From the NCBI GenBank assembly GCA_014905635.1, contig JABVCE010000024.1:62001-126000 (forward strand): DNA of 64,000 nt, given 5' to 3'. Below are positions 28,986-56,900 of this stretch, piece by piece. Position 1 is the first letter of the stretch. Each line of letters starts with the position of its first letter. The position numbers were made by a program, and so were the translations under genes. The notes below the pieces were generated by a model that saw only the letters and a list, made by a program, of their open reading frames with translations, was not told where the DNA came from and did not search any database. Origin of the DNA: Scenedesmus sp. PABB004 (Eukaryota).

Positions 28986-29071
28986 GGTCGAGGCGGTGCC
29001 GCGGCCGGGCGTGCACGCCCGGCCGGCACGTGCCGGCGCCGCGTTGCCCGCCGCCGGCAACCACCCCGCCG

Positions 29072-29632
29072 CCGCGGCCTGCCCCTCGACCCCCGCCATC
29101 TCCGGTCATCGCGCCCCTGCCCGCGCTGCTGCGCCCGCGCCGGGCCGGCGTCCGAGGCGGCCGCGCGCGGAGGGCTGCCCGAGGCGCAGGCGCTCACCAT
29201 TGACTCGGGCGCCCCGCCGCACCGCACGCACCTGCTTGGCTCAGGCGCGGCCGCGGCGCAGGCCGCTGCCCCGGCGGCCCCGCGCGCGCTGGCAGCCGGC
29301 GCGCCGCGCCACCGCCAGGCGGTGTTTGAGGACGCCGGCGCGCCGAGCAGATGCTGCTCAGCCTCCTGGCGCGCGGCTGCCGCCCTCGCGCGCCAGCGCG
29401 GCCAAGGTGCTGCAGCACCGTGCGCCGCCAGCTGGCGGCGCACGGCCGCCGGCAGCGCGGGCGCCCAGCGCTAGTTGCTGCGCGGCGGCAGCACGGCGCT
29501 CCTGGTCGGCCTGCCGCGTGGCGGGAGGCTGGCTGCCCGTGGCGGCGCCGGCGCCGAGCCGCAACTGCTGCAGGAGGCGGGCCGCCGGCGCGCGCGCGCG
29601 TGGCCGCGGTCGTTCGGCGGGCCGCTCGGCGG
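29072..29632 (+). pseudogene. Dispersed repeat / decayed armadillo-like gene fragment, copy 1
   Basis: Reverse complement matches 49637-50210, 62496-62940 and 46681-46945; frame-broken translation includes GLPEAQALTIDSG and HRQAVFEDAGA..MLLSLL. Confidence 0.55.
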
Positions 29633-35229: not shown

Positions 35230-36149
35230 AGGTGCCGGCGCGCGGCGCGGCAGAGAGAGCAAGCGGGGGGATTGATCGGGTGGTGCGGTCAAACTGCGTG
35301 GGCGGGCAGGCGAGGGGGGGGGGTGCTTCAGCAATTGCAGGGTGCCCTGGGACTGGCGCGAGCAGCCCCACACCTCAGGCCTGGCCGAGCCAGGCGTCGG
35401 GCGCTTGTGCTGTGCCCAGGCGCTCGCCAGCCGTGACCCGGCGGCGCCGCCGCAGCTCGCCAGCGCAGGTGCCGGGCACAGCCGAGCCGATCGCGGCTGC
35501 TCAGGCAGGGTGGCGGCGGAAGCCCCACCCCCACGCCGCAGGGGCAGCACCGCTGCAGCGCCGTACGGCGTGGCGGCGACTAGGCGGCCGCCTCCCGGCG
35601 GGCGGGCGGGCGCCGGGCGGCGCAAAGGGCGCTGGCGAGCGCGGCAGCAGCGCCACAGGCGCTTCCCGGGCCTGCGCCTTGCACAAGCGCTCCCAAACCT
35701 GCCGAGCTGCACAGCCGTCGTGCACGACGCCCGCGGGGAGGCGTGGCAGCGGGTTATACCAGCGGCCGGGGTCGCACACGCGCGCGCGCGGTCGCACATT
35801 TGCCGTCGCCGCCCAGCGCGCCCATACCCCGCCGCTTGCCTCGCAACGCGTGCGCAGACACCGTGCGTGCACGCTGGCGAGAGCTTGCGGTCGCAGAGCA
35901 AGCGAGCGCGGCGCACTGGGCGAACTAACTTTCGGTCGCACAAAGGCGGTCGCCTGGCGCGCGCTACCCGGCGACCGCGCGCGCCCCGCCACCATTCGCT
36001 GGCCCTCTCGCCCCCGACCCGCTTCGACGGATCGCCCCGTCATCCTGCCGCGGACCGCCGCGCCCTCTGCCGCCTGCCGCGGGTCCTGCAGCCCCTCAGG
36101 CGAGCGCCGGCGGCTTCGACTACCGCGGCTCCGCGCTCACACGCACGGG

Positions 36150-39100
36150 ATGCGGGCTGGGGCAGCCGCGCTGCTGCTGCTGGCGTGCTGCGCGGCGGCG
36201 GTGCGCGCGCAGACCTGTGGGGTGGCCATCTGCGTCACGATCGACGAGAGCGGCAGCATCGGGTCTACCAACTTCGTGAAGGTCAAGAATTTTGTGGTCG
36301 ACCTGTTCAACCGGACCAGCGCCGTGGCCAACAGTACGGCGGGCGTGCGCTGCGCACGACCGCCCGTTGCGGCCGACCAAGGGCGGGCTGGGCCGCCGCA
36401 TGCCACACGTGGAGCCCGCGTCCGCGGGCCGACCACGGGCGCCGTCCTTGAGCCGACCGCGCTCGCCCGCCCGCCCTGCCCCCCCCCCCCTCGCCCCCGG
36501 CTCGACCCGCAACAGCGTACGAGTTTGGCGCGGCCCGGTTCTCGACGGGCGCGTCGGACCTGGTCACTCCGATGACGGCCAACGCTGCGACCGCCATGTC
36601 CGCGGTCAGCAGCATGATTTACGGTGGCGGGAGCACCAACATGGTGTGCTGGGAGGGGAGAACTGCTTTAAAGCATTGTTGTTTTAGGGTGCAGGAGTTG
36701 TTATTCATGCGCGCGCCTGCGGGGGGGGGGGGGGGGGGGGCTGTGGCTCTGCTGCGCAGCGCGCGCCTGCCGCCGCGCCTCGCGCGCACTGAGCTGCCGC
36801 CGCGCCGCCGCGCTGCCCGCAGGAGGGCGGCATCGCGCGTGAGCCCTGCGCGAGCGCGCCACGGTGCTGGCCGTGCGGCGCTTGCGGAGTCCACTGATCT
36901 CACCGATGCGCGTGCCGCCGTGCGTGCGCAGGCTGCTTCAACAAGGACTCTGGCTCAGACGCCGGCATCCTGACAACCACCAGCAATGCCGCCCTGTCCC
37001 GGATCCTGGTCTTGCTCACCGGTGCGGTGGCGGCGGCAGCTGCGGCCAGGGCTGCGCGGCGCAGCGGAGCCGCGAGGGCTAGCGCCGCAAAGCGCAATCC
37101 AACGGCCAGCGGGGGGAAAGCTCTCAGCCAGCCGCCGCCTCACCACCCCGCTCCCTCCGTGCTGGCCGCCCCCGCCGCCACACGCAGATGGCAAGCCAAA
37201 CCGGGTGTATTCATCAACCCCGCCGGGCTGCTGCTCCGGTAGTACGACTTGCCAGCCGTCCGACTACATCTCTGGCTCAGACATCTCGGCATGCGCCAAG
37301 GACACCGTCACACGCAGGGGTGGGTGCTGGCGCTGCTAGCGGCTGAGCGTGCGGCGCCGCCGGGGGGCCGGCCCGCCCCCGCACCAACCGCGGCGCGCGC
37401 GCCCCCGCTCCGCCCACCCCTGCCTCTGCCTCCCTCTCTCTCTCTTACGCCCCAAGCCGCCACGGTGCGGGCCGCTGGCATCACCTTTGTCACCGTCGGT
37501 GTATCATCGGGCGTTGACGACACCTTCCTGGGAGGCCTGGGCCAGTACTACAAGGTCTCCAACTTTTCCGGCCTGGCGGCATACGTCGAGTCGGTCGCCA
37601 CGGGCGTCTGCACCGACGCGAGCGTGACCAAGGCCGTCGCATCTACATCTGAGCCGCTCGGGAACAACTTCACGTTTACGGTGACCATCACCAACACGGG
37701 CAAGTTCGACATCGCGTCAGCGGCAGCCAGCCCCATGGTTTTCACCGACACGCTGCCGTCGGGTCTCACGTTCCAGGCCGGCAGCGTCGCGCCCGGCGCC
37801 GGCAGCCCGCCAGGTGCGGGGTGGGGCGGCGGCGCTCCCCGCCGGGGCGCCGTTGGCGTGCGGCGACTGGCCCGCCGCGCCACGTGTGTGGAGGTGCAGG
37901 CTGCGCGGTGCCGTCGCACCAACGGCGGCACCACGCTGCTGTTGCGACGTGGCCGTGGCGCCCCAGCGCCTGCCTACCAGTGGGCGCTGCCAGCCCGAAG
38001 CGCCTAGCTTCTGCTGACACGCCCCTCACCCCCGTGCTGCCGTGTTGCGCGCAGCCAATTGCTCCTACACGAGTGCCACGCGCGCACTGCGGTGTTCAAT
38101 CACAAGCGGCACCCTGCCAGTGGGCGGCGCCACCTCCTGGTCCTACACGTACACCGCGGCCGCCACCACGGCCGGCACCTTCAGCGTCCCAACCGTGCTG
38201 TCACCATTCCGTGACAACAACGCGGGGAACAATTACGCCTCGTTGGCCGTGACGGTGACGGGGGCAGCCACCCCAGTCTCAGGTGCGCGTGCGCACTCGC
38301 TGCGGTCAGGCCCTGGTGGCCAGGTTGCGGCAGGCCCTGCCTGGCTGGCTGGCGTGTGCCGGCAGCAGCTGCGCACATCGCTCGCTGCAGCGCTGGGCGC
38401 GTCGGCGAGACAGCGCGCACGCTGCCCCGCAGACCCGACGGTCAGCGTGTCCCTGTCTGCGTCCACCGTGCTCATTGGGAGCAAGCTCAATGCCACAGTC
38501 ACTGTGACAAACCAGAGCCCCTCCGTTCAGGCCATCAACGTGGTCACTGAGTACACACTGCCGGCTGGGCTCGACTTTGACAACAGCACGTCGCCACCAG
38601 CCGGTGCGCGGGGTGCCGGCTCCTCCCAGGGCTGCACAGATGTGTGAAGCCGGGCGCCACTCCATGACGCGCCTGCTGCGCTGCCGCGCCGCCACGCGCG
38701 CAGGCTGCTCGGTGAGCGGCAAGGTCCTCACCTGCGCAGCCGGCAACATGTCAGCGAGCGGCAGCGCGGCGCATGTCGTCGGCCTGGTGGCCGTCCAGGA
38801 GGGCGTGTGGGACAGCGAGGCCGTTGTCGATGCGGACAATGACGGAGATGCCACCAATAACGGACCGGTGGTAGCAACGGTGACTGTCTTGGCCACGTGT
38901 GATGTGTACAACCCCGATGGCACTCGGTTTGGATGCAGCGCTGGCTCCATCTTCAACACCACGGCCGGCAGTGACCCGGGGCCTGACCAGGATACGTGCT
39001 GCGTGAGTGGCTTGCTTGGTGGGAGGGGTGGCTGCCACGCGGCAGCCAGCCAGCGCTGGCTGCACTGCGCTGCCAAGCTGCGCTCCAGCTCAAGGACATG

Positions 39101-42100
39101 CCGCCTGCCGAGCGCCAGTACCGCCGCCTCCGCCATCCCTGCTGCCGCCACGGCCGACGCCGCCACTGCCGCCACCCGCTGCCGCGCAGATTACTTGCCA
39201 GGTGTGCGCGGACTTTGTCGACCAGTGCGGCAGCTTTAACAACCTCTGCGGCGCCACGATCAACTGCACCTGCTCGGCGCCCAAGCCCTTCTGCCACATG
39301 CCCCAAACGCCGCTGCAGCCCGCGGGGCCTGGCTTCTGCTCCAACAGCTCCTTCAACCCGAGTCCCGACCTCGACGTTGCCATCACGCGCACGGTGCCGG
39401 CCGCCCCGGTGCTCATCAACACCACGTTTGACACGAACCTCACTGTGCGCGTCGTCAGCGGGCAGAGCGGCGCCAATGACGTCGTCGTGGTGGACACGCT
39501 GCCGCCGGGGCTGGTGCTCGTGTCGGTGCAGACGCCGGTCGGCACCTGCACGCCTGCTGGCTCGACCATCACCTGTGCGATCGGCGCGATGGCGCTGTCG
39601 CAGTCGGTGGTCGTGTCTGTCCGCGTGCGCGCGACGGCGCAAGGCACGCAGTCTACAAACGCCACTGTCACCGCCACGGGCGACACCGTCGCTGCCAACA
39701 ACGTCGACAGCCAGGCCATCACGGTCATCTGCGCCAGTTGCGCCTCGTTCGCCACTGCTGTGTGCGGCAACATCAGCAATGGCTGCGGCGCCACGATCAA
39801 CTGCACCTGCTCGGCGCCCAAGCCCTTCTGCCACATGCCCCAGACGCCGCTGCAGCCCGCGGGGCCTGGCTTCTGCTCCAACAGCTCCTTCAACCCGAGT
39901 CCCGACCTCGACGTTGCCATCACGCGCACGGTGCCGGCCGCCCCGGTGCTCATCAACACCACGTTTGACACGAACCTCACTGTGCGCGTCGTCAGCGGGC
40001 AGAGCGGCGCCAATGACGTCGTCGTGGTGGACACGCTGCCGCCGGGGCTGGCGCTCGTGTCGGTGCAGACGCCGGTCGGCACCTGCACGCCTGCTGGCTC
40101 GACCATCACCTGTGCGATCGGCGCGATGGCGCTGTCGCAGTCGGTGGTCGTGTCTGTCCGCGTGCGCGCGACGGCGCAAGGCACGCAGTCTACAAACGCC
40201 ACTGTCACCGCCACGGGCGACACCGTCGCTGCCAACAACGTCGACAGCCAGGCCATCACGGTTGTCTGCATCAGTTGCACCTCGTTCGCCACTGCGGTGT
40301 GCGGCACCATCAGCGATGGCTGTGGCGGCACCGTGGCCTGCACCTGCCCCTCAGACAGGCCGGTCTGCAGCCAGCCAGGCCCGCTGCAGCCGGGGTCGTG
40401 CTCTCCTCTTGTTCTGGCACAACCTGACGTTTCCATTCGCCAGCGCGCCGTGTACGCCGACCCGGCGCTCGGGTATGCGCGGACGGGGGAAGCGTTTGAC
40501 CTCTTGCTCACGGTGCAGCCAGAGAATGGCCCGGCCGGCGCGCAAGACGTGGTCCTCCAAACCACGCTGCCAGCAGGGCTGGAGCTGATTTCTGTCAACC
40601 CACGTGCGCGCGCCTCGCGCCGCGCAGCGCGGCCGCGCGGCTGCTGCGCGCTGGCCGCCCTCATCGAACTGACCGCGCCCCGCCGGCCTGCTGGCCTGCT
40701 CCAGTTGACGGCTGCGTCATCACGTACCCCCTGGTCAAGTGCACGTATGCCTCCCTGTCTGGCAGCCGTGACATCACCATCCGCGTCAAGGCCGACAGCC
40801 CCGGCACGTTCACCTGCGTGGCTGAGGTGACTGCCATAAACGACGGCAACCCTGCAAACAACAGAGACAGCGGGGTGGTTGTGGTGAAGAGGGATGTAGA
40901 CATCTCCATCACCGCGACAATGCCTAACGCCACCGTCCTTATTGGCAGCAAGCTCGACTGCACGCTTGTCGTGGCCAACCTCGGCGTGCAGCTGGCTACT
41001 GGCGTGGTTGCCAAGTACACGCTGCCGCATGGGCTGGCGTTTGACCCCAGCACCCCCCTGCCTGCAGGTGCGCGCGCGCAGGGTGCCAGGCGCTGGGTTT
41101 GAGCCCAGAACCAGCTGCACCCACGCGCAGGCCAGCTGAACATTGAGGCCGCGCTCACGCGCTGCTGCCGTGCGGGCGCAGGTTGCACCATCGTTGCCCG
41201 CCGCATTGCTGGGGCGCCCCGGGCTGCCCAGGCCGGCGGGACGCTGTCCTGCGGGCCCGGCAGCGTCCCGCCGGGCGGCAATGTGGCGTACGTCGTGGGC
41301 GTGGTGGCCGTCCAGGAGGGCTCGTGGGACAGCACGGCCCGCGTGTCAGCGACCAACGACACCAACCCGAGCAACGACGGCCCCGTCAAGCTTTCAATCA
41401 CCGTGCGCAGGACGTGCGGCCAGAACAGCGCAGACGGCGCACCCTTCACCTGCAGCAATGGCACAGCGCTCGATGCAATCCAAACCAGCAACGCGAGCCC
41501 CAGCCAGGCGACTTGCTGCGAGGTGAGCTGTCGCCTGCCAGCACTCCCTGCATGGCGCGGTGCAGGCCCCACTGCTCCTTGAACTACTCGCCCGCACTGG
41601 CCTGCGGCCGCCTGCAGGTCGCCATCACATCCGAAGGCAATAGTCGACCAGACGTCTCCATCACTGCATCCACGCTGAACACCGCTGTGCTCATTGGCAG
41701 CAAGCTCAACTGCACGCTGGTCGTGGCCAACCTCGGCGCGCTGCCGGCCACGGGCGTGGTTGCCAAGTACACGCTGCCGCCTGGGCTGGCGTTTGACCCC
41801 AGCACCCCCCTGCCTGCAGGTGCGCGCGCACAGGGTGCCAGGCGCTGGGTTTGAGCCCAGGACCGGCTGCGCCCGCGCGCAGGCCAGCTGAACATTGAGG
41901 CCGCGCTCACACGCCGCTGCCGTGCGGGCGCAGGTTGCACCATCGGCGGCCGTCGTACTGCCAGGCAGCCCAGGTCGCCCCGGGCTGCCCAGGCCGGCGG
42001 GACGCTGTTCTGCGGGCCCGGCAGCGTCCCGCCGGGCGGCAATGTGGCGTACGTCGTGGGCGTGGTGGCCGTCCAGGAGGGCTCGTGGGACAGCACGGCC

Positions 42101-45100
42101 CGCGTGTCAGCGACCAACGACACCAACCCGAGCAACGACGGCCCCGTCAAGCTTTCAATCACCGTGCGCAGGACGTGCGGCCAGAACAGCGCAGACGGCG
42201 CACCCTTCACCTGCAGCAATGGCACAGCGCTCAATGCAAACCAGGTCAATGCAAGCCCCAGCCAGGCGGCTTGCTGTCAGGTGAGCTGCCGGCTGCCAGC
42301 GCTGCCCGCATGGCGCGGTGCAGGCTCACTGCTCTATCAGCAAGCAGGCCACCACACTCGGCTCGCCCTCACGGCCCCGCTGTGCGGCTCGCAGGTCGCT
42401 GATGGCGCGCCTGACGTCTCCATCACTGCAACCACGCCCAGCGCCTCCATCCTTATCGGCAGCAAGCTCAACTGCACGCTTGTCGTGGCCAACCCAGGCA
42501 CGCTGCCGGCCACGGGCGTGGTTGCCAAGTACACGCTGCCGCCTGGGCTGGCGTTTGACCCCAGCACCCCCCTGCCTGCAGGTGCGCGCGCACAGGGTGC
42601 CAGGCGCTGGGTTTGAGCCCAGGACCAGCTGCACCCACGCGCAGGCCAGCTGAACATTGAGGCCGCGCTCACGCGCCGCTGCCGTGCGGGCGCAGGTTGC
42701 ACCATCGCTGCCCGCGCTGCTGGGGCGCCCCAGGCCGGCGGGACGCTGTCCTGCGGGCCCGGCAGCGTCCCGCCGGGCGGCAATGTGGCGTACGTCGTGG
42801 GCGTGGTGGCCGTCCAGGAGGGCTCGTGGGACAGCACGGCCCGTGTGTCAGCGACCAACGACACCAACCCGAGCAACGACGGCCCCGTCAAGCTTTCAAT
42901 CACCGTGCGCAGGACGTGCGGCCAGAACAGCGCAGACGGCGCACCCTTCACCTGCAGCAATGGCACAGCGCTCAATGCAAACCAGGTCAATGCAAGCCCC
43001 AGCCAGGCGGCTTGCTGTCAGGTGAGCTGCCGGCTGCCAGCGCTGCCCGCATGGCGCGGTGCAGGCTCACTGCTCTATCAGCAAGCAGGCCACCACACTC
43101 GGCTCGCCCTCACGGCCCCGCTGTGCGGCTCGCAGGTCGCTGATGGCGCGCCTGACGTCTCCATCACTGCAACCACGCCCAGCGCCTCCATCCTTATCGG
43201 CAGCAAGCTCAACTGCACGCTTGTCGTGGCCAACCCGGGCACGCTGCCGGCCACGGGCGTGGTTGCCAAGTACACGCTGCCGCCTGGGCTGGCGTTTGAC
43301 CCCAGCACCCCCCTGCCTGCAGGTGCGCGCGCACAGGGTGCCAGGCGCTGGGTTTGAGCCCAGGACCAGCTGCACCCACGCGCAGGCCAGCTGAACATTG
43401 AGGCCGCGCTCACGCGCCGCTGCCGTGCGGGCGCAGGTTGCACCATCGCTGCCCGCGCTGCTGGGGCGCCCCAGGCCGGCGGGACGCTGTCCTGCGGGCC
43501 CGGCAGCGTCCCGCCGGGCGGCAATGTGGCGTACGTCGTGGGCGTGGTGGCCATCCAGGAGGGCTCGTGGGACAGCACGGCCCGCGTGGCAGCGACCAAC
43601 GACACCAACCCGAGCAACGACGGCCCCGTCAAGCTTTCAATCACCGTGCGCAGGACGTGTGCCAAGTACTACGCTGACGGCACTCGGTTTGGATGCAGCA
43701 CTGGCTCCAGCTTCAACGCCACGGCTGCCAACGACCCCACGCCTGGCCAGCAGACGTGCTGCGTGAGTGGCTTGCTTGGCGGGAGGGGTGTGGCTGCCGC
43801 GCGGCAATGCTGGCTGCCAAGCTGCGCTCCCGCTCGGGCACGCACTGCCCGACAATGGTGGCGCCTGGACCAGCGCCGGTGCTGTGCCCATCCTTCCTTT
43901 CGCAGCCGCCGCCATCCCTGCTGCCGCCGACGCTGCCGCCATCGCTGTCCCGCTGCCGCGCAGATCGACTGCAAGGGTTGCGCGGACTTTGCGTCTGGGT
44001 GTGGCACCATCAGCGACGGCTGCGGTGGCACCCTCGACTGTGGCTGCTCGGGCGCCACGCCGTTCTGCCACCAGTCGCAGGCCCTCCAGGCCCTGTCCGA
44101 GTTGGGCTACTGCGACGCTGCGCCCTTCAACCCGGGGTCCAAGCTGGACGTGCTCGTGGACAAGGTCGGCCCGAGCGAGCCGGTCGAGCTCGGGTCCGAG
44201 TTCAACTTCCTCGTCACCGTGCGCGTCGTCTCCGGCCCCAAAGGCGCCAACGACGTCACCGTGGTGGACACGCTGCCGCCAGGGCTGGAGCTGGTCTCGC
44301 TGCGGACGCCGCGCGGCACCTGCACGCCGTCGGGCTCCACCATCACGTGCGCGTTTGGGAACATGGTACTGTCGCAGTCGGTCGTCGTGACGATGCGTGT
44401 GCGGGCGACGGCGAAGGGCATGCACAACACGAGCATTGCCACCAAGGCGAGCGACAGCAACCCATTGAACAACAACGCCATCCTGGGGGTGCAGGTGCGA
44501 ACTGCACCCAAATCTCTTTGAAGAAGTGCAGGGCCTGCCGCGGCGCTCCTCTCTGACTGCCAACCGCGCGGCGCAGGTGATTTGCAGCACGTGCGACAGC
44601 TTTCCCGGCCGGTGCGGCGCCATCGCCACCGGGTGTGGCACCATCCAGTGCGGCTGCCCCAGCGAGCGCCCCGTGTGCGTGCAGCTGCCAGGGGCCCCCA
44701 CCAGCAGCAGCGTGTGCAACACTCGGTCTGTCAGCCCGAGCGGGCGCGTGGACGTCGCCGTCATGGTCACCGGGCCCACCTCAGCCGTGGTGGTTGGCCG
44801 CGAGTTTGAGTTGCTGATCACTGCCACTGTCCTGAGCGGCGCGAAGGGCGCAAGCAACGTCGTCGTCACCGGTCACATCCCCGACGGTCTCGAGGTGGTA
44901 GGCGTGGTGCCTGGTGCGCGCGCACTGCGCGTCCCCCTGCGCGCGCTGCGTTCCCCTGCACGCGCTGCGTGCCCCTGGGGCTCGACACCCAGCCTGCTGC
45001 CTGGCCGGTGCACCGACTGCGTTGCCGCCGCTGCCCGCAGACGCGCAATGCACGATCCAGTACCCCTCAATCTCTTGCGCCGTGGGCGCGCTGGGTGTGG

Positions 45101-46177
45101 GTGAGAGCTACTCCCTCACGGTGCGCGTCAAGGCGTCACGCGATGGATCCTTCACCAGCAGTGCCACGGTCAGCGCCACCGGCGACGGCCAGAAAGCCAA
45201 CAACCGATACAACGCAAGAGTCACCGTGGTGCGTGGTTCCGCCCCGCGCGCAGCCTGGCACCCGGTCTAGGCGCTGGCCCGGCTTGCAGGCGTGCCCGCT
45301 CGCATCAGGCTGACCAGGCAATGATGTGCCGACGCCTGCTTGCAGGTCAACGGCGCGTGTTGTGCGCCCGACAAGACCTGCCGGCTGGTTGACGAGTCTG
45401 CCTGCGTTGCCGGCACCTACATGCCTGGCCAGACGTGCGACAGCGCGACTTGCAGGCTCGTGCCGGCTGCGCTTCCCCTCGGCGCGTGCTGCGACGTGCA
45501 GCGCGGCCAGTGCGCGGTGGTGACACAGGCTAGCTGCGCATCAGGCGCCTGGACGCAGGGCGCCAACTGCACCGTGGACGTCTGCCCGCAGGCAGTGAGT
45601 GGCGGCTGAGCGCAGCGCGGCTGCTTGTCCCTCTTGGCCCTGCTGGCCAATTAGCGCGCGCAGCTGCCGACGTGCGGCGTCCCCGCCCCTCCCGCAGTTC
45701 TGCACGCCGGACTGGCGCATGTGCACGCCGTCCGTTGGGAGCGGCTCCAGCCCCTGCTGCAACCCCACGAGCGCGTGCAAGCCCGTGCAGGGCCTCAAGA
45801 CGCGTTGGTACGCCTGCACGCTCGGCGAGGCCTGCCGCGCTGAAGGCCAGGCCTGCGGCTCGTGCCCCGGTGGCGCTTCGTGCTGCGACGGGCTCACCTG
45901 CAAGTGGGAGCACAAGCGCGGCAACGGCGTGTGCACAAAGCCGTTCACGTGCGCCCAAGACGGCGCGTCCTGCGCCTCAGCGCAAGACTGCTGCCCCGGC
46001 TCCACCTGCGGCTCCGACGGCAGGTGCCGCGCCTGCGACTGCAACCGCGCGTGCGCGAAGCACGACAAGGCATGCGAGGCGGAGCGGGAGTCAGAGTGCA
46101 AGAGCCTGTCGGCGGTTGTTGCCAGCGCCGTTTTGCCCGGCCCAGGCGGCGCCGTCATCCAAGTGCGGGGGGCCTGA
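36150..46177 (+). CDS. Giant secreted adhesin-like glycoprotein, paralog 1: signal peptide, vWA domain with MIDAS, 11 DUF11/Ig-like modules with Cys-rich linkers, Cys-rich C-terminus
   Basis: MRAGAAALLLLACCAAAVRA signal; IDESGS..GGSTNM..ILVLLTDGKPN..ITFVTVGV; modules such as DASVTK..FTFTVTITNTG..FTDTLPSGLTF..DNNAGNN; CGxxxDGCGGT and GACC repeats; no TM segment seen; stop 46177. Confidence 0.85.
39247..40330 (+). repeat. Intron-less 537-bp exonic tandem duplication (Cys module + DUF11) x2 in paralog 1
   Basis: TGCGGCGCCACGATCAAC at 39247 and 39784; nearly identical units. Confidence 0.95.
40890..43660 (+). repeat. ~740-765 bp exon+intron tandem array x4 (DUF11 + Cys linker) in paralog 1
   Basis: GGCAGCAAGCTC anchors at ~40944, 41696, 42458, 43199; introns are repeated with the exons. 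Confidence 0.93.
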
Positions 46178-46680
46178 GCCCCGCCGCCTGTCAATAAGGC
46201 TTGGTAGCACACACACCAGGGTAGAGAGCATGGGGAAGGCACGTTTTCTTTGCCCCACCCAGTGCAAGGCTGTCATAAAACAGATGCAATTGCAACTTCT
46301 ATTCTCCAACTGTTTGCAGCAAAGCCCTGCAAAGACAGCGTTAAATGAACGCACGGGCTCGCTTGACGAGGTGGTGTTGTTGTCGCCAACCCTTTACCCT
46401 AAATGCTACCCCCTCTCTCGCTCTACAACGTTGTTGCATGCCTGGCTAGCTTCGGCGACCACACCTGCTGCATGTTCGTGATTGGCCTGTTGTACAACAA
46501 GCCACTCCTTGGTGGCTGGGTGATGCGGGGCTCGTCGAGCCCCGGTCTGTTGCCAGGGCTCAGCTCAGCTAGCAACGATGCCTAGCACTATCTTGGTGGG
46601 TATCGCATCAACGCATGCACTCGCATCAACGCATGCAACAACGCCACTAACCGCCGACAGTTGCAGCTCTGGCGTTGAGC

Positions 46681-46945
46681 CCCGCCAAAGACCGCGGCCA
46701 TCACGCCGCGCGCGCACCGTCAGCCGCAACCAGCAGCCTCCCGCCGCGCAGCAGGCCGACCAGCAGCGGCGTGCTGCCGCGCAGCAGCTGGCCCAGGTGG
46801 ACGCCCGCGTTGCCGCCGGCCAGCGCTGCCAGCACCTGCGCCGCGCTGGCACGCGCGGGAACAGGAGGCTGAGCAGCATCTCCAGCGTGCCAGCGCCCTC
46901 AAACACGGCCTGGTGGTGGCGCGGCGCGCCGACTGCACAGCGCGC
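46681..46945 (-). pseudogene. Dispersed ARM-like remnant, copy 2 (short, next to the duplication junction)
   Basis: Matches 62520-62820 and 49660-49980; minus strand reads HHQAVFEGAGTLEMLLSLL. Confidence 0.55.
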
Positions 46946-47053
46946 GCAGGGCCACCGCGGCGGCGGCCTGCGTCGCAGGCGCGCCCGAGCCGAGCAGGCG
47001 CGTGAGGCGGGGTAGGGGAGGCGGCGGCAACGGGTCGTTGTCACGTGCCGCTG

Positions 47054-49277
47054 CCGCCAGGCTGGTGCTGCTGCCGCTGGACCCCGCGCAAGCACGCCAA
47101 GGACTCGCTGCGCCCAGGGCAGTCGCTGGACGCCGTGAGCATCGCCACGCAGCTCGACCGGGCAGCCGCGGGGCGCGGGCAGCTCAGCGCGCCGCTGCCG
47201 CCGGCGCGCCTCGGCACCGCGCAGAGGCTCCGAGCAGCCAGGTCCGGCGCTCGTCACAGAGTACATGGTCAGCGGCAGGCGAGTGCCGGGGCAGCGGCAG
47301 GCGCAGGGCCCGAACCTGCACCGCCGACGGGGGAGGAGTGGGAGGGAGGGGAAGCGCTGCGCGCGCACCCCGGCCCCGCTGCCGCGGGCGGCGGCGGGGT
47401 CGGGGGTCCCTCGCGCCGCCCCTGATGCAGCGCCGGCGCGCGTCGCGTCGCTTCGCTCCCCGCCGCGCCGCGCCGCAGCCTGCGCGGCACCATCGCGCGG
47501 CGCGCCGACTTTCTCGCCCGCGACAGCGTGCGCATCAAGCTCGCCCTCGATGTGGCACGGGCGCGGCGGCGCGGGCACGGGCGGGGACGCGGGGGCGCGC
47601 GCGTGCGGGGGACGCACGGGGGGCTGCAGCAGCCGCGGGCGCGCGCGCGGCGGGCGGCGGGCGGCGTGCGCGCCCTCCCGCGCCGCGCGCCGTCGCTGCT
47701 GCCCGCCGCGGCGCTTGTCACTGTCAAACGAGCTGAAGTTCAAACGTCACTTTTAAATCAAACTGAGCCGTAAGTGAACCGCAAACCCCATCGCCTGTGT
47801 CCTTCCTGACAGGGTATGGCCAAATTGCATGACAAGAGCATCGTGCACTTCGACCTCAAGGTGGGCCAAGGGTTTAGGGGAACGGGGAAGGGGGGGGGGG
47901 GCCCAGGTGGTCGCTCACAGGCCAGGGCGCTGGCGCGCTCGCGCGTGCGCCGTCGCGCGTCGACGGCGGCGCCAGCAGCGCGGCCGCCGGCGGCCGAGCG
48001 CCGCGCGCCGCTCGCCGCCGCGCCAGCACGCCCGGGCCGCCGCCGCGGCCGCCGCCGCAGACGGCCAACCTGCTGGTGGGCATGCGGGACAAGACGCCGC
48101 TGGCCCAGGTGCGCGGCAGCGTGTGTGGTGGTGGCTGTGGCGGTGCGCGTGCGCGTGCGTGTGCGCGTGCTCCGCTCACACGTGCTCGCGCCGCCCGCGC
48201 CGCGCCGCGGCGTCCGCGCGCCGCCAGGTCGCCGACTTTGGCCTGAGCAAGCAGCGGCAGCAGACGTTTGTGACAGGTGCGCCGCCCTGCCCCTCCCCTC
48301 CTCCCCTCCTGCCCTCATGCCCGTGCGCGCGCGGCGCGGCGCGGGCCGCGCGGCCGGCCGGCCGCCGCGCGCGCCGGCCGAGCGCCGGTGCCCGCTGCGT
48401 GCCGGGCAGGCGTGGCGTCGCTGCAGGGCACGCTGCCGTGGATCGCCCCCGAGATCATCATGACCCCTTCCGGTCACCGGTGCGCGCGCGCGACATGGCG
48501 CGTGCGCGCGACGGCCCCGGCGGCGTGCACAGCGGCAGCGGCGGCGGGGGCGCGGCTTGCTCGGCGAGGCGCCCCGACCCGCAGCGCCCTGCCCCAAGCC
48601 CCGCCGCGCGCGCCTCGCCCGCGCCCCGACCCGCCGCGCCCGCGCCCGCGCCTGCGCCCGCGCCCGCGCCCGCGCCCGCCCGCCGCGCAGAGAAGGTGGA
48701 CGTCTTCAGCTTTGGCGTGGTGCTGTGGGAGCTCTGGTGCGCGCCGCCCCGGGGCGGCCCCCGCGCGGCCGCGCGCCCTTGACCCTGAACCCTTGAACCC
48801 TAAACCCGGCAGGACGCTGCGTGAGCCGCACGAGGGCGTCAACTATCACGCCCTTCTGCACGCGATGTCCGCGTCGGCCGACGTTGTGCGGCACCCGATG
48901 CCAGGTGCGTGCCCCCCACCCCACACTCCACGCCCCTCCCGCGGCGACGGCGGCGACGCTGCCCCGCCCGCGCCCCGCGCGCGCCGCGCGGCCGGCCGCC
49001 GGCCCGCCGCCGCGCCGCTGCCGACCGACCCCTGTGCCGCACCGCGCGTCGTGCAGGCAGCCCCGAGTTTGAGGGTGACGCGGGGCCGGAGCCCGCGCCC
49101 GGCTGGGCGGCGCTAATCGGCGATTGCCTCGCAACCGCGCCGGCCGCGCGGCCGGCGTTCAGGGAGGTGGTCGGCCGCCTGGAGGGCATGCTGCGCGCCA
49201 ACCGCGCGACCAAGCGCCGCACCGCGAGCGGCCCGCCGGGCGCGGGCGCCGCGGCGGCAGCGGCGGGGCCGGCCTGA
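47054..49277 (+). pseudogene. 5'-truncated duplicate of the PB1-Raf kinase (C-terminal part of the kinase domain only)
   Basis: Homology begins at the acceptor CCGCCAG|GCTGGTGCTG (cf. 32912). No PB1, Gly-loop or VAVK exons. Frame-breaking deletions near 47090, 47247 and 48471; donor GT>GC at 47561; MAYLH>MAKLH. Confidence 0.85.
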
Positions 49278-49636
49278 GGGCGTGGGGCGCGCGGCGCGGC
49301 AGAGAGCAAGAGGGGGGATTGATCGGGCGGCGTGGTCAAACTGCGCGGGCGGCGGGGCGGCCGGCGGGGGGGGGGGACCCAGGCATTGCTTCAGCGATTG
49401 GGTTAGGGTGCCCTGGGACTGGCGCGCGCAGCCCGCAACTCAGGCCCGGCCGAGCCGGGCGTCGGGCGCTTGTGCTGCGCCGACAGCGCTCGCGAGCGCT
49501 CGCCAGCCTGGCGCTCCCAGCGGCGCCGCCGCAGCTCGCCAGCGCAGGCACCTGTCGAGCGCAAGCCAGCGTGCGATCTCTCGCAGCTCGCCGCCGGCCG
49601 CGCCCAGGGTGCCAGCGTGTCGCCGCCTCGGCCAGC

Positions 49637-50210
49637 GCGGCGCAGCGCTCCGCCGAGCGGCCCGCCACGACCGCGGCCTTCACGCCGCGCGCGCGCTGCC
49701 GGCCGCACCTGCAGCAGCTGCGGCTCGGCGCCGGCGCTGCCGCCGGCAGCCAGCCTCCCGCCGCGCGGCAGGCCGACCAGCGGCGGCGTGCTGCCGCCGC
49801 GCAGCAGCTGGCCCTGGACGCCCGCGCTGCCGGCGGCCGTGCGCCGCCAGCACCTTCGCCGCGCTGGCGCGCGAGGGCGCGCAGCCGCGCGCCAGGAGGC
49901 CGGGCAGCATCTGCGGCGCGCCGGCGCCCTCAAACACCGCCTGGCGGTGGCGCGGCGCGCCGGCTGCCAGCGCGCGCGGGGCCGCCGCGGCGGCGGCCCG
50001 CGCCGCGGCCGCGCCAGTGCCTGAGCCGAGCAAGCGCGTGCGGTGCGCCGCACCGGGTGCGGCAGGGCGCCCGAGTCAATGGTGAGCGCCTGCGCCTCGG
50101 ACAGCCCTCCGCGCGTCCACAGCGCGGCCTCGGACGCCGGCCCGGCGCGGGCGCAGCAGCGCGGGCAGGGGCGCGATGACCGGAGATGGCGGGGGTCGAG
50201 GGGCCGGCCG
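49637..50210 (-). pseudogene. Dispersed ARM-like remnant, copy 3
   Basis: Inverted match to 29072-29632; absent at the syntenic position of unit A (shared anchor GCGGCGACTAGG at ~35573 and ~50210). Confidence 0.55.
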
Positions 50211-50901
50211 CGGCGACTAGGTTTTCCCTTTTTTTAACTTGGCGTCAGCGGCGCTGACCCCGGCGCTCAGCAGCAGTCGATCCGGCGTTGCTCGGCCCTG
50301 GCCGGCGGTCGACGGTGGCACAAGCAGGCTGGTCGCCCGGCCTGTGCGCCTGCCAGGCGCGCAGGGAGGCCGGGGCGGCGCAGCGCTGGCGGGCGGTGGG
50401 CTGAGCCAGCGCCCTGGCCAGCCGCTCACGGCCCGCGCCGTGGCTCGTGCGACGGAGCTGATGGAGAGCACCGCAGGCGTGCACGACGGCCGTGGCAGCG
50501 GGTGTTCGGCGTCGGGCGACGCCGGCAGTCGCCGAATTCGCTTGCGAGCTCACACAAATGCCGTTCTGCCTGCGCGCCGATGCCCCAAACGGTGCGCGTC
50601 TCCATCGTCCGCGCTCGTCCCCGCCGCGCGCGCGGTCGCAGAGCAAGCAGGCGCGGCGCACTCGGCCGCGTACCGAGCGCGCGCGCTACCCGACTGCTCC
50701 CCCCGGCGCAGAGACGCCATCACTCTGCGCCCCCTGCTGAGCGTGCTCGCCCCTGTGCGCTCCGCTCATCGCGCCGCGGGCCGCGCCTCTGCGACGCCCT
50801 GGCGCGCGGGGGTGCGCCGACGACCGTGAAGCCCTAGCGAGCGCCCTACGCCGCTGGTGCCGGCGGCACCCTCTTCCTCGGCCCCGCGCGACTCGCACGG
50901 G

Positions 50902-53900
50902 ATGCGGGCGTGGGCGGCCGCGCTGCTGCTGCTGGCGTGCTGCGCGGCGTCGGTGCGTGCGCAGACCTGCAAGGTGGCCATCTGCGTCGCAATCGACGAG
51001 AGCACCAGCATCACCGCCCCCAACTTCGCGTTGGTCAAGAGCTTTGTGGCCAACCTGTTCGTCCGTACCAGCAGCGTCGTGGGCAGCTCCAATTGTGCGG
51101 CGCGCGTGCGCTGCGCGGCCGGCCCGCAGCGACTGCGGCGGCGCCGCGCCGGGCGGGCTTGGCCGCCGCATGCCGCTCGTAGGACCCGCGTCCGCGGGCC
51201 GACCACGGGCGCCACTCTTGAGCTGACCGCGCTCGCCCGCTGCGCCTCCCGGCCCGCCTCGACTCGGTCCAGCGTACCTGTTTGGTGCGTCCCGGTTCAG
51301 CACGACCGCAGCCAGCTTTATCAGTCCGTTGAACAACAACATTCAGACCACCAATACCACGATACTTAACATGAATTATGCCGGCGGGGCCACCAACATG
51401 GTGTGCTGGGAAGGGGGGAGGGGAGAGGGGGAGGGGGGGCTGGGGCTCGCACGCAGTGCGCGCCTGCCGTCGCACCTCGCACACACTGAGCTGCCCCCGT
51501 GCCGCCGCGCCCCCGCAGGAGGGCGGCATCAAGAGTGAGGCCTGCGCGGGCGCGCCGCGGTGCTGGCCGTGCGGCGCCGCGGAGTCCACTGATCTCACCG
51601 ATGTGCGTGCCCCCGCCGCGCGCGCGCGCGCAGTGTGCTTCAACAAGGACTCTGGCTCGGAAGCCGGCACCCTGAGATCCAGCTCGGCCGGCACCCTGAC
51701 CCGCATCCTGGTCTTGCTCACCGGTGCGGCGGCGGCGGCGGCGCCGTCGCCGTCGTCGGCGGCGGTGGCGAGCAGGCGGCCAGCGCAGCGCAGTGCAGCG
51801 GTGCCGCGCTCCCACGGCCAGCTAAGGGCGAGCTCTCCACCCGCCGCCGCCTCAACACCACCCTCTGCTGGCCGCCCCCGCCGACGTACAGATGGCAAGC
51901 CAAACTATGTGTATAGACTCACTCCGCCGAACTGCTGCCTCAGCAACGCCACGACAGATGTTTGCCTGCCTGCCGACTACAACAGCACCACAGACGTCTC
52001 GGCATGCGCCCAGGGCACGGTCAAGAACAGGGGTGGGTGTTGCCGCTGCCGCTGCTCCGCGCGCAGCGCCGCCCGGCCCGCCCCCGCACCAACCGCGGCG
52101 CGCGCGCCCCCACTCCGCCCACCCCTGCCTCTGCCTCCCCCTCTCCCCCACGCCCCAAGCCGCCGTGGCGCGGGCCGCTGGCATCACCTTTATCAGCGTC
52201 GGCGTCTCCCCAGCCGTTGACGACACCTTCCTGGGAAGCCTGGGCCAGTACTACAAGATTGATGACTTTGCCAGCATGGCGGCACAGGTCGAAACAATCG
52301 CCACGGGGTTCTGCACCGACGCGCGCGTGACCAAGGTGGTCTCGGCGACAAACCAGACGGTCGGCGGCAGCTTCACGTTTACGGTGACCATCACCAACAC
52401 GGGCAAGTTTGCTATCGCGCCCACGGCAGCCAGACCCATGGTTTTCGCCGACACGCTGCCGTTGGGGCTCACGTTCCAGGCCGGCAGCGTCGCGCCCGGC
52501 GGCGCCGGCAGCCCGTCAGGTGCGGGGCGGGGCGGCGGCGATCCCGCCGGGGCGCCGTCGGCGCGCGGCGGCTGGCCCGCCGCGCCGCGTGTGCGGAGGC
52601 GCAGGCCGCGCGGTGCCGTCGCACCAACGGCGCGCAGCGGCGGCACCACGCTGCAGTTGCGGCGCGGCCGTGGCGCCCCAGCGCCTGCCTGCCGGTGGGC
52701 GCTGCCAGCCCGAAGCGCCTAGCTTCGACTGACACGCCCCTCGCCCCCCGCGCTGCCGTGCTGCGCGCAGCCACATGCTCCTACGACAGCGTCGCCCGCT
52801 CGCTGAGGTGCTCAGTCACGAGCGGCACCCTGGCAGTGAGCGGCACCGCCAGCACCTGGTCCTACACGTACACCGCGGCCGCCACCGGGCCTGGCACCTT
52901 CAGCGTCCCAACCGTGCTGTCCCCATTCCTGGACAACACCGCCGGAAACAACAATGCCGCAGTCCAGGTGAGCGCCGCGGCCGCCGGGAACACGCGGGCG
53001 ACCCGTTTGGGCGCACCACGCGGTCGGAGCAGCAGCAGGTGGCCAGCGACGCCGAGCTGCTGCGCTGCTGGCGGCGGCGGCGCGCTGCAGGCGCCTTGCC
53101 ACGCGCGCGCGCGCCCCGACCCGCCTGGGGCCGACCGCCCACCACGGCTGCGCGCGCAACTGACTGTTGTTGTGCGACGCCGCCGTGCAGGTGACGGTGA
53201 CGGGGGTGGCCAACACCAACACCCCAGTCTCAGGTGCGCGCGCCCGCTCGCTGCGGTCAGGCCCTGGGCAGGTTGCGGCAGGCCCTGCCTGACTGGCTGT
53301 GGCGTGTGCCGGCAGCAGCTGCGCTCGTCGCTCGCCGCAGCGCTGGGCGCATCGGCGAGACACCGCGCACGGCCGCCCCGCAGACCCGACGGTCTCCGCG
53401 TCCCTGTCTGCGTCCACCGTGCTCATCGGGAGCAAGCTCAATGCCACAGTCACTGTGACAAACCAGAGCCCCTCTGTTCAGGCCATCAACGTGGTCACTG
53501 AGTACACGCTGCCGGCTGGGCTGGACTTTGACAACAGCACGTCGCCACCAGCCGGTGCGCGGGGTGCCGGCTCCTCCCAGGGATGCACAGATGTGTGAAG
53601 CCGGGCGCCACTCCATGACGCGCCTGCTGCGCTGCCGCGCCGCCACGCGCGCAGGCTGCTCGGTGAGCGGCAAGGTCCTCACCTGCGCAGCCGGCAACAT
53701 GTCAGCGAGCGGCAGCACGGCGTACGTCGTCGGCCTGGTGGCCGTCCTGGGGGACACGTGGGACAGCGAGGCCATTGTCGATGCGGACAATGACGGAGAT
53801 GCCACCAATAACGGACCGGTGGTAGCAACGGTGACTGTCTTGGCCACGTGTGACGTGTACAACCCCGATGGCACTCGGTTTGGATGCAGCGCTGGCTCCA

Positions 53901-56900
53901 TCTTCAACACCACGGCCGGCAGTGACCCGGTGCCTGACCAGGATACGTGCTGCGTGAGTGGCTTGCTTGGTGGGAGGGGCGTGGCTGCAACGCGGCAGCC
54001 AGCCAGCGCTGGCTGCACTGCGCTGCCAAGCTGCGCTCCAGCTCAAGGACATGCCGCCTGCCGAGCGCCAGTACCGCCGCCTCCGCCATCCCTGCTGCCG
54101 CCACGGCCGACGCCGCCACTGCCGCCACCCGCTGCCGCGCAGATTACTTGCCAGGTGTGCGCGGACTTTGTCGACCAGTGCGGCAGCTTTAACAACCTCT
54201 GCGGCGCCACGATCAACTGCACCTGCTCGGCGCCCAAGCCCTTCTGCCACATGCCCCAGACGCCGCTGCAGCCCGCGGGGCCTGGCTTCTGCTCCAACAG
54301 CTCCTTCAACCCGAGCCCCGACCTGGACGTTGCCATCACGCGCACAGTGCCGGCCGCCCCGGTGCTCATCAACACCACTTTTGACACCAACCTCACCGTG
54401 CGCGTCGTCAGCGGGCAGAGCGGCGCTAATGACGTCGTCGTGGTGGACACGCTGCCGCCGGGGCTGGCGCTCGTGTCGGTGCAGACGCCGGTCGGCACCT
54501 GCACGCCTGCTGGCTCGACCATCACCTGTGCGATCGGCGCAATGGCGCTGTCGCAGTCGGTGGTGATGTCCGTCCGCGTGCGCGCGACGGCGCAGGGCAC
54601 GCAGTCTACAAACACCACTGTCAGCGCGACGGGCGACACCAACGCTACCACCAGCGTCGACAGCCAGACCATCACGGTCATCTGCGCCAGTTGCGCCTCG
54701 TTCGCCACTGCTGTGTGCGGCAACATCAGCAATGGCTGCGGCGGCACGATGAACTGCACCTGCTCGGCGCCCAAGCCCTTCTGCCACATGCCCCAGACGC
54801 CGCTGCAGCCCGCGGGGCCTGGCTTCTGCTCCAACAGCTCCTTCAACCCGAGCCCCGACCTGGACGTTGCCATCACGCGCACAGTGCCGGCCGCCCCGCT
54901 GCTCATCAACACCACGTTTGACATGCCCATCACTGTGCGCGTCGTCAGCGGGCAGAGCGGCGCTGATGACGTCGTCGTGGTGGACACGCTGCCGCCGGGG
55001 CTGGCGCTCGTGTCGGTGCAGACGCCGGTCGGCACCTGCACGCCTGCTGGCTCGACCATCACCTGTGCGATCGGCGCAATGGCGCTGTCGCAGTCGGTGG
55101 TGATGTCCGTCCGCGTGCGCGCGACGGCGCAGGGCACGCAGTCTACAAACACCACTGTCAGCGCGACGGGCGACACCAACGCTACCACCAGCGTCGACAG
55201 CCAGACCATCACGGTCATCTGCGCCAGTTGCGCCTCGTTCGCCACTGCTGTGTGCGGCAACATCAGCAATGGCTGCGGCGGCACCGTGGCCTGCACCTGC
55301 CCCGCAGACAGGCCTGTCTGCAGCCAGCCAAGCCCGCTGCAGCCGGGGTCGTGCTCCTCTCCCGTTCCCGTTCCGCCGAGCGTCGGGAACCCTGCCGTGT
55401 CCGTGCGCCAGCGCGCCGTGTACGCCGACCCGGCGCTCGGCTACGCGCGCACCGGGGAGGCGTTTGACCTCGTGCTCACGGTGCAGCCAGAGAATGGCCC
55501 GGCCGGCGCGCAGGACGTGGTCCTCCAAACCACACTGCCAGCAGGGCTGGAGCTGATTTCTGTCAACCCACGTGCGCGCGCCTCGCGCCGCGCAGCGCGG
55601 CCGCGCGGCTGCTGCGCGCTGGCCGCCCTCATCGAACTGACCGCGCCGGCCTGCTGGCCTGCTGCAGGTGGCGGCTGCGCCATCACGTACCCCCTGGTCA
55701 AGTGCACGTATGCCTCCCTGTCTGGCAGCCGTGACATCTCCATCAGCGTCAAGGCCAACAGCCCCGGCGCGTTCATGACCGTGGCCGAGGTGACTGCCTC
55801 TGGCGGGCTCACGAACAGAGACAGCAATACGTTAGTTGTTGTGAAGAGGGATGCGGGCGTCTCCATCGCCGTGACCACGCCCAGCGGCTCCGTGCTCATT
55901 GGCAGCAAGCTCAACTGCACGCTGGTCGTGACCAACCCGGGCACGCTGCCGGCCACGGGCGTGGTTGCCAAGTACACGCTGCCACCTGGGCTGGCATTTG
56001 ACCCCAGCACCCCCCTGCCTGCAGGTGCGCGCGCACAGGGTGCCAGGCGCTGGGTTTGAGCCCAGGACCAGCTGCGCCCGCGCGCAGGCCAGCTGTGCCT
56101 CAAGAGGCCGCGCTCATGCGCCGCTGCCGTGCGGGCGCAGGTTGCACCATCGGCGGCCGTCGTGCTGCCAGGCAGCCCAGGTCGCCCCGGGCCGCCCAGG
56201 CCGGCGGGACGCTGTCCTGCGGGCCCGGCAGCGTCCCGCCGGGCGGCAATGTGGCGTACGTCGTGGGCGTGGTGGCCATCCAGGAGGGCTCGTGGGACAG
56301 CACGGCCCGCGTGGCAGCGACCAATGACACCAACCCGAGCAACGACGGCCCCGTCAAGCTTTCAATCACCGTGCGCAAGACGTGTGCCATGTACAGCGCT
56401 GACGGCGCACCCTTCAACTGCACCGCTGGCACAGAGCTTGACGCAACCCAAACCAGTAACGCGAGCCCCAGCCAGGCGACTTGCTGCGAGGTGAGCTGTC
56501 GCCTGCCAGCACTGCCGCATGGCGCGGTGCAGGCTCACTGCTGCGTCAGCAAGCAGGCCAACAGGGCACCACACTCGTCTCGCCCTCACGGCCCCGCTGC
56601 GCGGCTTGCAGGTTGCTGATGGCGCGCCGGACGTCTCCATCGCCGTGACCACGCCCAGCGGCTCCGTGCTCATTGGCAGCAAGCTCAACTGCACGCTGGT
56701 CGTGACCAACCCGGGCACGCTGCCGGCCACGGGCGTGGTTGCCAAGTACACGCTGCCGCCTGGGCTGGCGTTTGACCCCAGCACCCCCCTGCCTGCAGGT
56801 GCGCGCGCACAGGGTGCCAGGCGCTGGGTTTGAGCCCAGGACCAGCTGCACCCACGCGCAGGCCAGCTGTGCCTCAAGAGGCCGCGCTCACGCGCCGCTG

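Follow-up and report, generated by a model that had tools for sequence, protein, structure and literature searches.

The window analysed here is a stretch of 64,000 nucleotides from the green alga Scenedesmus sp. PABB004 (contig JABVCE010000024.1, positions 62,001 to 126,000), with a G+C content of 68–84%. Comparison of the window with itself revealed a tandem duplication of ~14.5 kb, comprising unit A (~33.1–46.2 kb) and unit B (~47.2–61.9 kb), and the aligned A/B blocks were 79% to 90% identical. Each unit contained a protein kinase gene followed by a very long plus-strand gene for a predicted secreted protein with a von Willebrand factor A (vWA) domain and DUF11 repeats. As listed in Table 1, these vWA-DUF11 genes (copies A and B) encoded in the same order a signal peptide, a vWA head, a DUF11 stalk with Cys-rich linkers and a Cys-rich C-terminus. 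In the head, the exons of the two copies had diverged more than the introns between them, and the excess consisted of amino-acid replacements.

Both genes were rebuilt by aligning A with B and following the reading frames and splice sites. All introns were of the GT-AG type (22/22 in A and 25/25 in B), and no internal stops were found in 2308 codons of A or 2491 codons of B. A 16-base microexon in the middle of the vWA domain (EGGIA in A, EGGIK in B) was required by the head model. Its flanks were the best-conserved stretches of the head introns (~91% identical between A and B) and may be splicing signals for the microexon. An RNA hidden in these conserved intron blocks was considered and rejected, the sole Rfam match on 36000–38500 (21.8 against 46 bits, E 0.96) being far below threshold. 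In copy A the head segment 37457–37614 was the first part of exon 6. The junction from 37813 to 38055 occurred exactly as modelled for copy A in a metatranscriptome contig (199 bases, 0 mismatches). Copy A exon 7 (38055–38282) was uninterrupted where its homolog in copy B contained an additional intron; therefore, this intron was gained or lost since the duplication. No second copy of its 223 bases was found in the window, where only short GC-rich chance matches were seen.

Table 1. Features of the duplicated locus (positions in the window; aa, amino acids; p, proportion of differing sites)
Feature	Position	Counterpart in copy or unit B	Strand	Remarks
vWA-DUF11 gene, copy A	36150–46177		+	23 exons, 2308 aa, stop TGA 46175–46177
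vWA-DUF11 gene, copy B	50902–61900		+	26 exons, 2491 aa, stop TGA 61898–61900
vWA head, copy A (aa 1–236)	36150–37614		+	exons 36150–36333, 36516–36643, 36823–36838, 36932–37021, 37188–37319, 37457–37614
vWA head, copy B (aa 1–242)	50902–52317		+	exons 50902–51094, 51273–51400, 51519–51534, 51634–51723, 51892–52032, 52160–52317
16-base microexon	36823–36838	51519–51534		
Exon 2, most diverged exon	36516–36643	51273–51400	+	β2 to MIDAS Thr loop
Intron only in copy B	52968–53190		+	GT-AG, 223 bases
Proximal stalk, A/B conversion tract(s)	38283–40704	53234–55667	+	95.3% identical overall
Two 537-base tandem repeats in exon 10	39225–40298	54178–55251	+	Cys linker + DUF11
Array of ~750-base repeats	40898–43681	55854–59456	+	~3.7 units in A, ~4.7 in B (one more)
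Distal stalk, exons 19–20	43964–44913	59746–60697	+	exons 3.8–4.8% differ; flanking introns p 0.146, 0.171, 0.157
Protein kinase gene, unit A	33097–35469		+	yardstick for the age of the duplication
Protein kinase gene, unit B	47160–49548			counterpart of unit A kinase

Two smaller differences between the copies were observed. The last exon of copy B, whose start was set at 61385 behind a CAG, opened with a 27-base in-frame insert (61385–61411, ASPPPSPAP), apparently duplicated from the pyrimidine-rich stretch that ends the intron before it. Intron 2 of copy A alone contained a 58-base insert, within which lay a 41-base AT-rich piece (36667–36707). In three DNA metagenome runs, long contigs of greater depth matched this piece with 0 differences, and a short RNA contig matched it with 3; the matching metagenome contigs continued into unlike sequence, and the piece resembles a fragment of a sequence that occurs widely. 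The window held no other copy of the insert, only short GC-rich chance matches.

The stalk open reading frame was 100% and 89% identical to two deposited Scenedesmus sp. PABB004 proteins, P0001 and P0002, the models of which proved faulty. P0001 (“drkD”, 36150–49274) joined exon 1 to exon 4 and skipped exon 5, so lacking vWA exons 2, 3 and 5, and its 3′ end was spliced onto the unit B kinase gene by a fusion across ~1.65 kb. When copy A was read through at 46162, it ended in ...IQVRGA-TGA as copy B does, indicating that the kinase fusion was an annotation artefact. P0002 (51519–61897) started inside an intron, lacked exons 1–2 and read through the intron 55572–55667. These faults explain why neither protein carried a vWA annotation. 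A different contig of this genome encoded a third paralog (P0071, HT031_006692), with 40–44% identity to the two heads. The model deposited for it was truncated at the N-terminus and began in the middle of the vWA domain; the joins of exons 2-3-4-5-6 were mirrored in the P0071 protein (...TNMEGG..CFN..RIL.LLTDG.PN..CC..ITF...).

The identity of the head was examined against solved structures and motifs. Exon 1 matched the vWA domains of collagen VI alpha-2 (E 5.8e-7), alpha-3 and alpha-1 and, more weakly (E up to about 1), MIC2, complement factor B and integrin alpha-X/M. A DxSxS motif at the end of β1 (DESGS in A, DESTS in B) aligned with that of collagen VI alpha-2. The Thr and then the Asp motif of a metal ion-dependent adhesion site (MIDAS) followed in the expected order in both spliced models (GGGSTN in A and AGGATN in B, then LVLLTDG in both), with TRTN and LLTDG as their P0071 counterparts; MIDAS positions were assigned by motif and general vWA topology rather than by structure. 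The head is thus well supported as a vWA domain by sequence comparison, though without a formal Pfam pass. A signal-like N-terminus was present in both copies. For the stalk, DUF11 (PF01345) was detected at E 1e-125 on both deposited proteins (412.6 bits in 10 stretches of P0001, 410 bits in 11 of P0002) and at E 4e-8 to 4e-34 on single stalk exons.

To date the duplication, the kinase genes were used. Over 167 codons, kinases A and B had a replacement rate (dN) of 0.02 and a silent rate (dS) of 0.20 (dN/dS, omega, 0.10 by the Nei-Gojobori method, NG86), and they differed at 15/103 4-fold degenerate sites and at 124/847 non-coding columns (p 0.146). Five 3′ introns of the vWA-DUF11 genes gave p 0.137–0.171. 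Neutral divergence since the duplication was thus about 0.15–0.2 per site.

A preliminary description of this DNA had claimed that the vWA heads diverge more than their own flanking introns, and this was borne out. The sequences on which it drew were located: the exon peptides at 36518–36643 and 51275–51400, the MIDAS loops DESGSIGST (36243–36269) and DESTSITAP (50995–51021), the DGKPN motif at 37187 and 51891, and a 25-base intron block at 36884 and 51579. The vWA exons differed at 161/642 bases (0.25) and the six head introns at 137/902 aligned bases (0.15; 0.152), giving an odds ratio of 1.87 (Fisher P = 1.6e-6); with all head exons counted (235/1134, 0.21) the difference from the introns persisted (Fisher P = 0.0015). 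By exon, the differences were 33/183 (p 0.18) in exon 1, 45/129 (0.35) in exon 2, 2/15 (0.13) in exon 3, 19/90 (0.21) in exon 4, 38/132 (0.29) in exon 5, 57/357 (0.16) in exon 6 and 41/228 (0.18) in exon 7, and single head introns 1–6 ranged from 0.08 to 0.28. Windows of 100 bases zigzagged along the head, exon windows having p 0.19–0.36 and intron windows 0.06–0.17; in the 3′ stalk the order was reversed, introns being more diverged than exons.

The head introns were not “almost identical”, as had been stated, since only 72–92% of their bases agreed, and the identical 25-base block was a local stretch within an intron that was 91% identical overall. Nor were they specially conserved, because ~0.15 was also found in the 3′ introns, in the kinase non-coding sequence and at kinase 4-fold sites. 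The head exons look more diverged than the introns because the introns carry plain background divergence; the contrast was one of fast head exons against ordinary introns, not of ordinary exons against conserved introns.

To see how selection had acted, codon rates were estimated by NG86 with bootstrap confidence intervals (CI) and by a maximum-likelihood (ML) model allowing codon bias (GY94-F3x4), G+C at third codon positions (GC3) being 0.82–0.88. Over 214 codons of the vWA domain, NG86 gave dN 0.304, dS 0.308 and omega 0.99 (CI 0.69–1.50). The NG86 and ML values of omega were 0.63 and 0.35 for the first DUF11, 0.40 and 0.25 for the proximal stalk, 0.40 and 0.20 for the distal stalk, and 0.25 and 0.105 for the C-terminus. 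Thus dN was 0.30 in the vWA domain and 0.03–0.06 in the stalk and C-terminus, where dS was similar or lower, and omega was 4–5-fold higher in the head than in the C-terminus under both methods. Such a contrast, one domain 4–5x faster than its neighbours, is a clean one within a single gene.

Against neutral sequence the result depended on the yardstick. By ML, omega of the vWA domain was 0.53, significantly below 1 (likelihood ratio test, LRT, 8.1), and in the hottest stretch (residues 61–110, replacement proportion, pN, 0.37–0.44; 0.44 in the window aa 71–100) it reached 0.88 (LRT against 1, 0.07). In exon 2, pN was 0.367 and the silent proportion (pS) 0.292. Replacement sites of the vWA domain (120.5/481.5) exceeded the head introns (137/902) by an odds ratio of 1.86 (P = 1.3e-5), and no excess was found over 4-fold sites (P = 0.46) or silent sites (P = 1.0). 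Because intron A/T sites differed 2.7x as often as G/C sites (0.247 against 0.09), a composition-matched comparison was made, in which vWA codon positions 1+2 stood at 1.6x the intron expectation and those of aa 61–110 at 2.2x. The head therefore evolved at about the neutral rate, 0.5–1.6x according to the yardstick, and a change of dN/dS method alone moved omega from 0.5 to 1.0 in this genome with ~85% GC3. In no estimate was dN/dS significantly above 1 (NG86 0.99; ML 0.53; the best ML value, 0.88, in aa 61–110), while a value well below 1 was, arguably, what ML gave and not what NG86 gave. Diversifying selection on the head, which the preliminary description had proposed, is neither shown nor refuted by these values: the excess over introns speaks for it, the lack of any over 4-fold sites against it.

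The differences were not spread evenly over the head. Heads A and B were 61% identical over 214 aligned codons, 84/214 residues being different, and the differences were clustered (dispersion 0.97, compared with 0.61 under permutation; P = 0.033). Besides residues ~61–110, the variable stretches lay just after DxSxS, before β4 and in the four-Cys insert after DGKPN, segments that were assigned to the MIDAS face by general vWA topology and not by a model. The last third of the domain (AAGITF..VGVS..VDDTFLG.LGQYYK) was less variable. The Cys-rich inserts after DGKPN had been described as different; they proved to be the same insert, with all four Cys kept and one 3-residue indel. Each N-x-S/T glycosylation sequon of the vWA domain was specific to one copy (5/5: NRT and NFS in A; NTT, NAT and NST in B).

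Both heads look functional. All Cys of the mature head (8/8) and the MIDAS residues were kept in A and B; head indels were multiples of 3 in 5/5 cases in exons and in 2/19 in introns (the two gaps due to the extra intron of B being set aside); and no frameshifts, stops or lost splice sites, as signs of a pseudogene, were found in either rebuilt model. Compared with P0071 over its vWA part, 13 positions differed in A only, 18 in B only and 30 among all three proteins, indicating that both head lineages had changed, roughly symmetrically.

Natural variants of the head were seen in contigs of two freshwater metagenome runs, which aligned with 3–5% differences; the counts that follow are for the 40 of 61 differences that were listed, the exonic ones of which lay in exons 4, 6, 7 and 8 only. 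Among them, 23 were exonic, 14 replacement and 9 silent. Other parts of the head, exon 2 among them, had no contig in any of the four runs compared. The variant letter was that of copy B in 18/36 comparable differences, most of these 18 being G/C in the environmental relatives and A/T in the reference copy A. As proof of conversion in the head, this half share was rejected, because simple divergence predicts half where the derived allele is that of the reference.

The likeness of the stalks had several sources. The preliminary description's near-identical stalks held for the intervals it had named, 38400–39350 (97.5%, 24 differences/951) and 43965–44450 (97.9%, 10/486), and not for the stalk as a whole, which was a mosaic with a protein identity of 83–93% by region. 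In the proximal stalk, introns 8, 9 and 10 differed at 1/100, 1/187 and 1/96 bases (99.0–99.5% identical; 3/383 in total) against a background of ~15%, and identical runs of 269 bases (39037–39306) and 133 bases (38633–38766) crossed exon-intron borders. This pattern demonstrates recent gene conversion between A and B at 38.3–40.7 kb. Conversion limited to the stalk, which had been suggested, thus fits 38283–40704 and fails for 43965–44450, an exon flanked by introns 14.6% and 17.1% diverged, whose similarity therefore did not come from a tract including those introns. Here, and in the stalk outside the tract generally, the conserved exons among diverged introns are clear evidence of purifying selection.

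Within each stalk, repeats resembled one another more than their counterparts in the other gene. The 537-base repeats were 97.2% (A1-A2) and 96.6% (B1-B2) identical within genes and 93.5–95.7% between them. Similarly, the ~750-base units were 93.9–96.6% (A1–A3) and 96.4–98.3% (B1–B3) identical within genes, and these units of A were 90.6–94.0% identical to these of B. A higher identity within than between genes indicates homogenisation within each gene; the pattern is clear, and as its mechanism either repeat homogenisation or independent expansion in each gene may be proposed. The divergence landscape was thus a mosaic, not a variable head on a uniform stalk, with conversion, purifying selection and repeat homogenisation acting side by side in one gene.

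Taken together, the data are best explained (with a probability of about 0.55) by two functional adhesin-like genes with weakly constrained heads and stalks kept alike. The locus would comprise two intact tandem genes for giant secreted adhesin-like proteins, each with a complete MIDAS in the head and a DUF11 stalk. Since the duplication, purifying selection would have been much weaker on the head than on the rest of the protein, and replacements would have gathered at a roughly neutral rate in both copies, mostly around the MIDAS loops, the β2-α2 segment and the Cys-rich insert, while the residues defining the vWA fold were kept in both. The heads would thereby have diverged in ligand specificity and glycosylation, whereas the likeness of the stalks reflects purifying selection, the A/B conversion tract and, probably, homogenisation or independent expansion of repeats within each gene. 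From the architecture we infer that the proteins act as adhesins. The safest statement is that constraint was strongly relaxed on two still-functional heads, the specificity of which probably diverged.

Several points weigh against this explanation. RNA support consisted of the one copy A junction, from an environmental sample. Pfam VWA (PF00092) on the single exon 1 scored 21.9 bits in A and 18.9 in B, below the cut-off of 23.8, and P0001, which skips vWA exons, scored 20.7 bits; the C-terminal part of the domain (exon 6) gave 0 hits against solved structures. The third positions of the vWA domain stood at 1.84x the intron expectation, an excess that a purely protein-level explanation does not predict. 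Finally, the neutral yardstick was itself uncertain in this genome of 70–84% GC, omega being 0.53 (ML), 0.99 (NG86) or 1.6 (matched introns), so that a “roughly neutral” rate can mean anything from relaxed constraint to positive selection.

True diversifying selection on the residues that face the ligand, whether through an arms race in recognition or through the need to tell apart self and non-self, gametes or partners, is somewhat unlikely. Some head residues would then have omega above 1, the average of the domain being masked by its framework. It would account for the excess of replacements over introns (1.86x; 1.6x after composition matching and 2.2x in aa 61–110), for the 30 positions that differ in all three paralogs, and for changes clustered by DxSxS, in β2-α2 and in the Cys insert around invariant MIDAS residues and Cys. 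Exon 2 of copy B had moved to AT-rich Asn/Ile/Thr codons and an NTT sequon against the GC pressure of the genome (G+C at first codon positions 0.30, against 0.47 in A; GC3 0.74 against 0.88). Against it, no window or model gave omega significantly above 1 (domain ML 0.53; replacement against 4-fold sites P = 0.46), the comparison rests on two genomic sequences, and the 14 replacement and 9 silent differences listed for the environmental variants correspond to omega below 1 there. We regard as improbable a wider form of this idea, in which the three paralogs would together serve recognition, on a bacterial-type vWA-DUF11 scaffold acquired long ago. MIDAS-face residues and glycan sites would have been driven apart for distinct partners (same-colony cells, gametes or phycosphere bacteria), and conversion would keep the stalks interchangeable while being selected against in head exons.

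It is quite improbable that the duplication is older than the introns suggest, conversion having partly homogenised the greater part of the unit, its head introns included, and that the vWA exons, which escaped by chance or because converted heads were selected against, show its true age. Such a history would fit the excess at vWA third positions (1.84x), an NG86 pS of 0.25 in the vWA domain above the intron p of 0.15 (P = 0.004), head intron divergence ranging from 0.08 to 0.28, the mosaic along the locus and the conversion active in the stalk. However, the tracts would have to cover six successive introns of 93–241 bases and spare the exons of 16–357 bases between them. Moreover, strict 4-fold sites of the vWA domain (14/70) differed as often as those of the kinase and C-terminus (P = 0.59) and as the introns (P = 0.30), and the kinase gene and the 3′ introns, with no sign of tracts, also gave 0.15.

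Equally improbable is decay of one head after the duplication, or an excess produced by GC-biased conversion or base composition. In favour, NG86 omega was near 1, the genome is extremely GC-rich (GC3 0.82–0.88; intron A/T sites differing 2.7x as often as G/C sites), and in such a genome silent sites should in theory change more slowly than replacement sites that contain A/T, so that omega would be inflated. Against it, both reading frames (2308 and 2491 codons) and their splice sites were intact, head exon indels were in frame (5/5), MIDAS residues and Cys were kept in both copies, changes were about symmetric (13 and 18), the excess remained at 1.6x after composition matching, the more changed exon 2 of B had become AT-richer and not GC-richer, contrary to what a drive by GC-biased conversion would give, and by our own tally of the listed environmental differences the B-letter variants were mostly G/C against A/T in copy A, the opposite of a burst of biased conversion.

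Relatives of the proteins were sought in databases and metagenomes. Among the matches listed, the best non-self matches of the stalk (for example of its exons at 39007–40599) were metagenomic and bacterial proteins at ~25–49% identity. One metagenome protein (P0083, 2077 aa) had a Pfam VWA domain at 71–262 (E 5e-12) followed by 12 DUF11 stretches, the same order of N-terminal head and DUF11 (TIGR01451, “conserved repeat domain”) array that characterises prokaryote-type surface proteins; head A aligned weakly with its vWA domain (31% over 135 aa, E 0.027). Unlike this type, the algal genes had 22–25 spliceosomal introns, host-like G+C, and Cys-rich linkers and C-terminus. An old transfer of the vWA-DUF11 scaffold from bacteria to the algal lineage is possible on these likenesses. 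A search with the P0001 head returned 3 proteins, 2 of them from the window itself, a search with the P0071 head returned 17, and for HMMER with exon 6 150 of 1168 matches were listed. By BLASTP of both heads against 214 collected proteins, only P0001, P0002, P0071 and the weak vWA match of P0083 were found. The lack of head matches beyond these four is weak evidence of absence from other algae, the searches being limited in length and in the number of matches listed. Scans of metagenome contigs gave 586 matches to a protein pattern, 0 of them relatives, and 0 exact matches to the 25-base intron block.

Exon 1 shared the β1-α1 segment with DxSxS with MIDAS-type vWA and integrin I-type domains (collagen VI, MIC2, complement factor B, integrin alpha-X/M), from which the algal head differed by its four-Cys insert after the TDG loop and by low identity. 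In the available parts of reports on the yeast Hil and FLO families and on CEACAM, as at this locus, paralogs are tandem or clustered, the N-terminal binding domain is fast-evolving, repeat copy number changes, and gene conversion or ectopic recombination acts among paralogs (10.1101/2022.02.09.479577, PMC3512402, PMC8860441, PMC7042247). The algal genes differ in belonging to unrelated domain families and in giving no omega significantly above 1, and their products are not known to bind a ligand. The pattern is one familiar from adhesin families, in an algal vWA-DUF11 family whose vWA head was missed by the deposited models.

Green algae also have surface glycoproteins in which a globular head, borne on a long and fibrous shaft, mediates specific adhesion: the sexual agglutinins of Chlamydomonas, which are rich in hydroxyproline and are not known to contain vWA or DUF11 domains. 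We know of no mating link for the vWA-DUF11 genes of Scenedesmus. Should the heads prove to determine specificity, adhesion between Scenedesmus cells, or between alga and bacterium, would be a candidate role for these genes; we know of no molecular data on these processes in Scenedesmus. In the portions available of the literature naming PABB004, no mention of DUF11, drkD, Willebrand or adhesin was found, and papers combining DUF11, von Willebrand and alga included, by their titles, none on algal genes. The strain appears as S. glucoliberatum PABB004 in the reference list of one paper.

Further repeats were observed in the window. A repeat of ~300–560 bases, 82–89% identical between copies, lay in unit B between the kinase gene and the vWA-DUF11 gene (49637–50047), 3′ of each vWA-DUF11 gene (46731–47017 and 62495–62891) and, inverted, upstream (29070–29632). 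This repeat is probably a dispersed element, through which the duplication may have arisen. Another pair of direct repeats (25196–25680 and 28451–28934) was 94.7% identical over ~490 bases, and a tandem array with an offset of ~75–120 bases and 78–81% identity was located near the start of the window (29–558).

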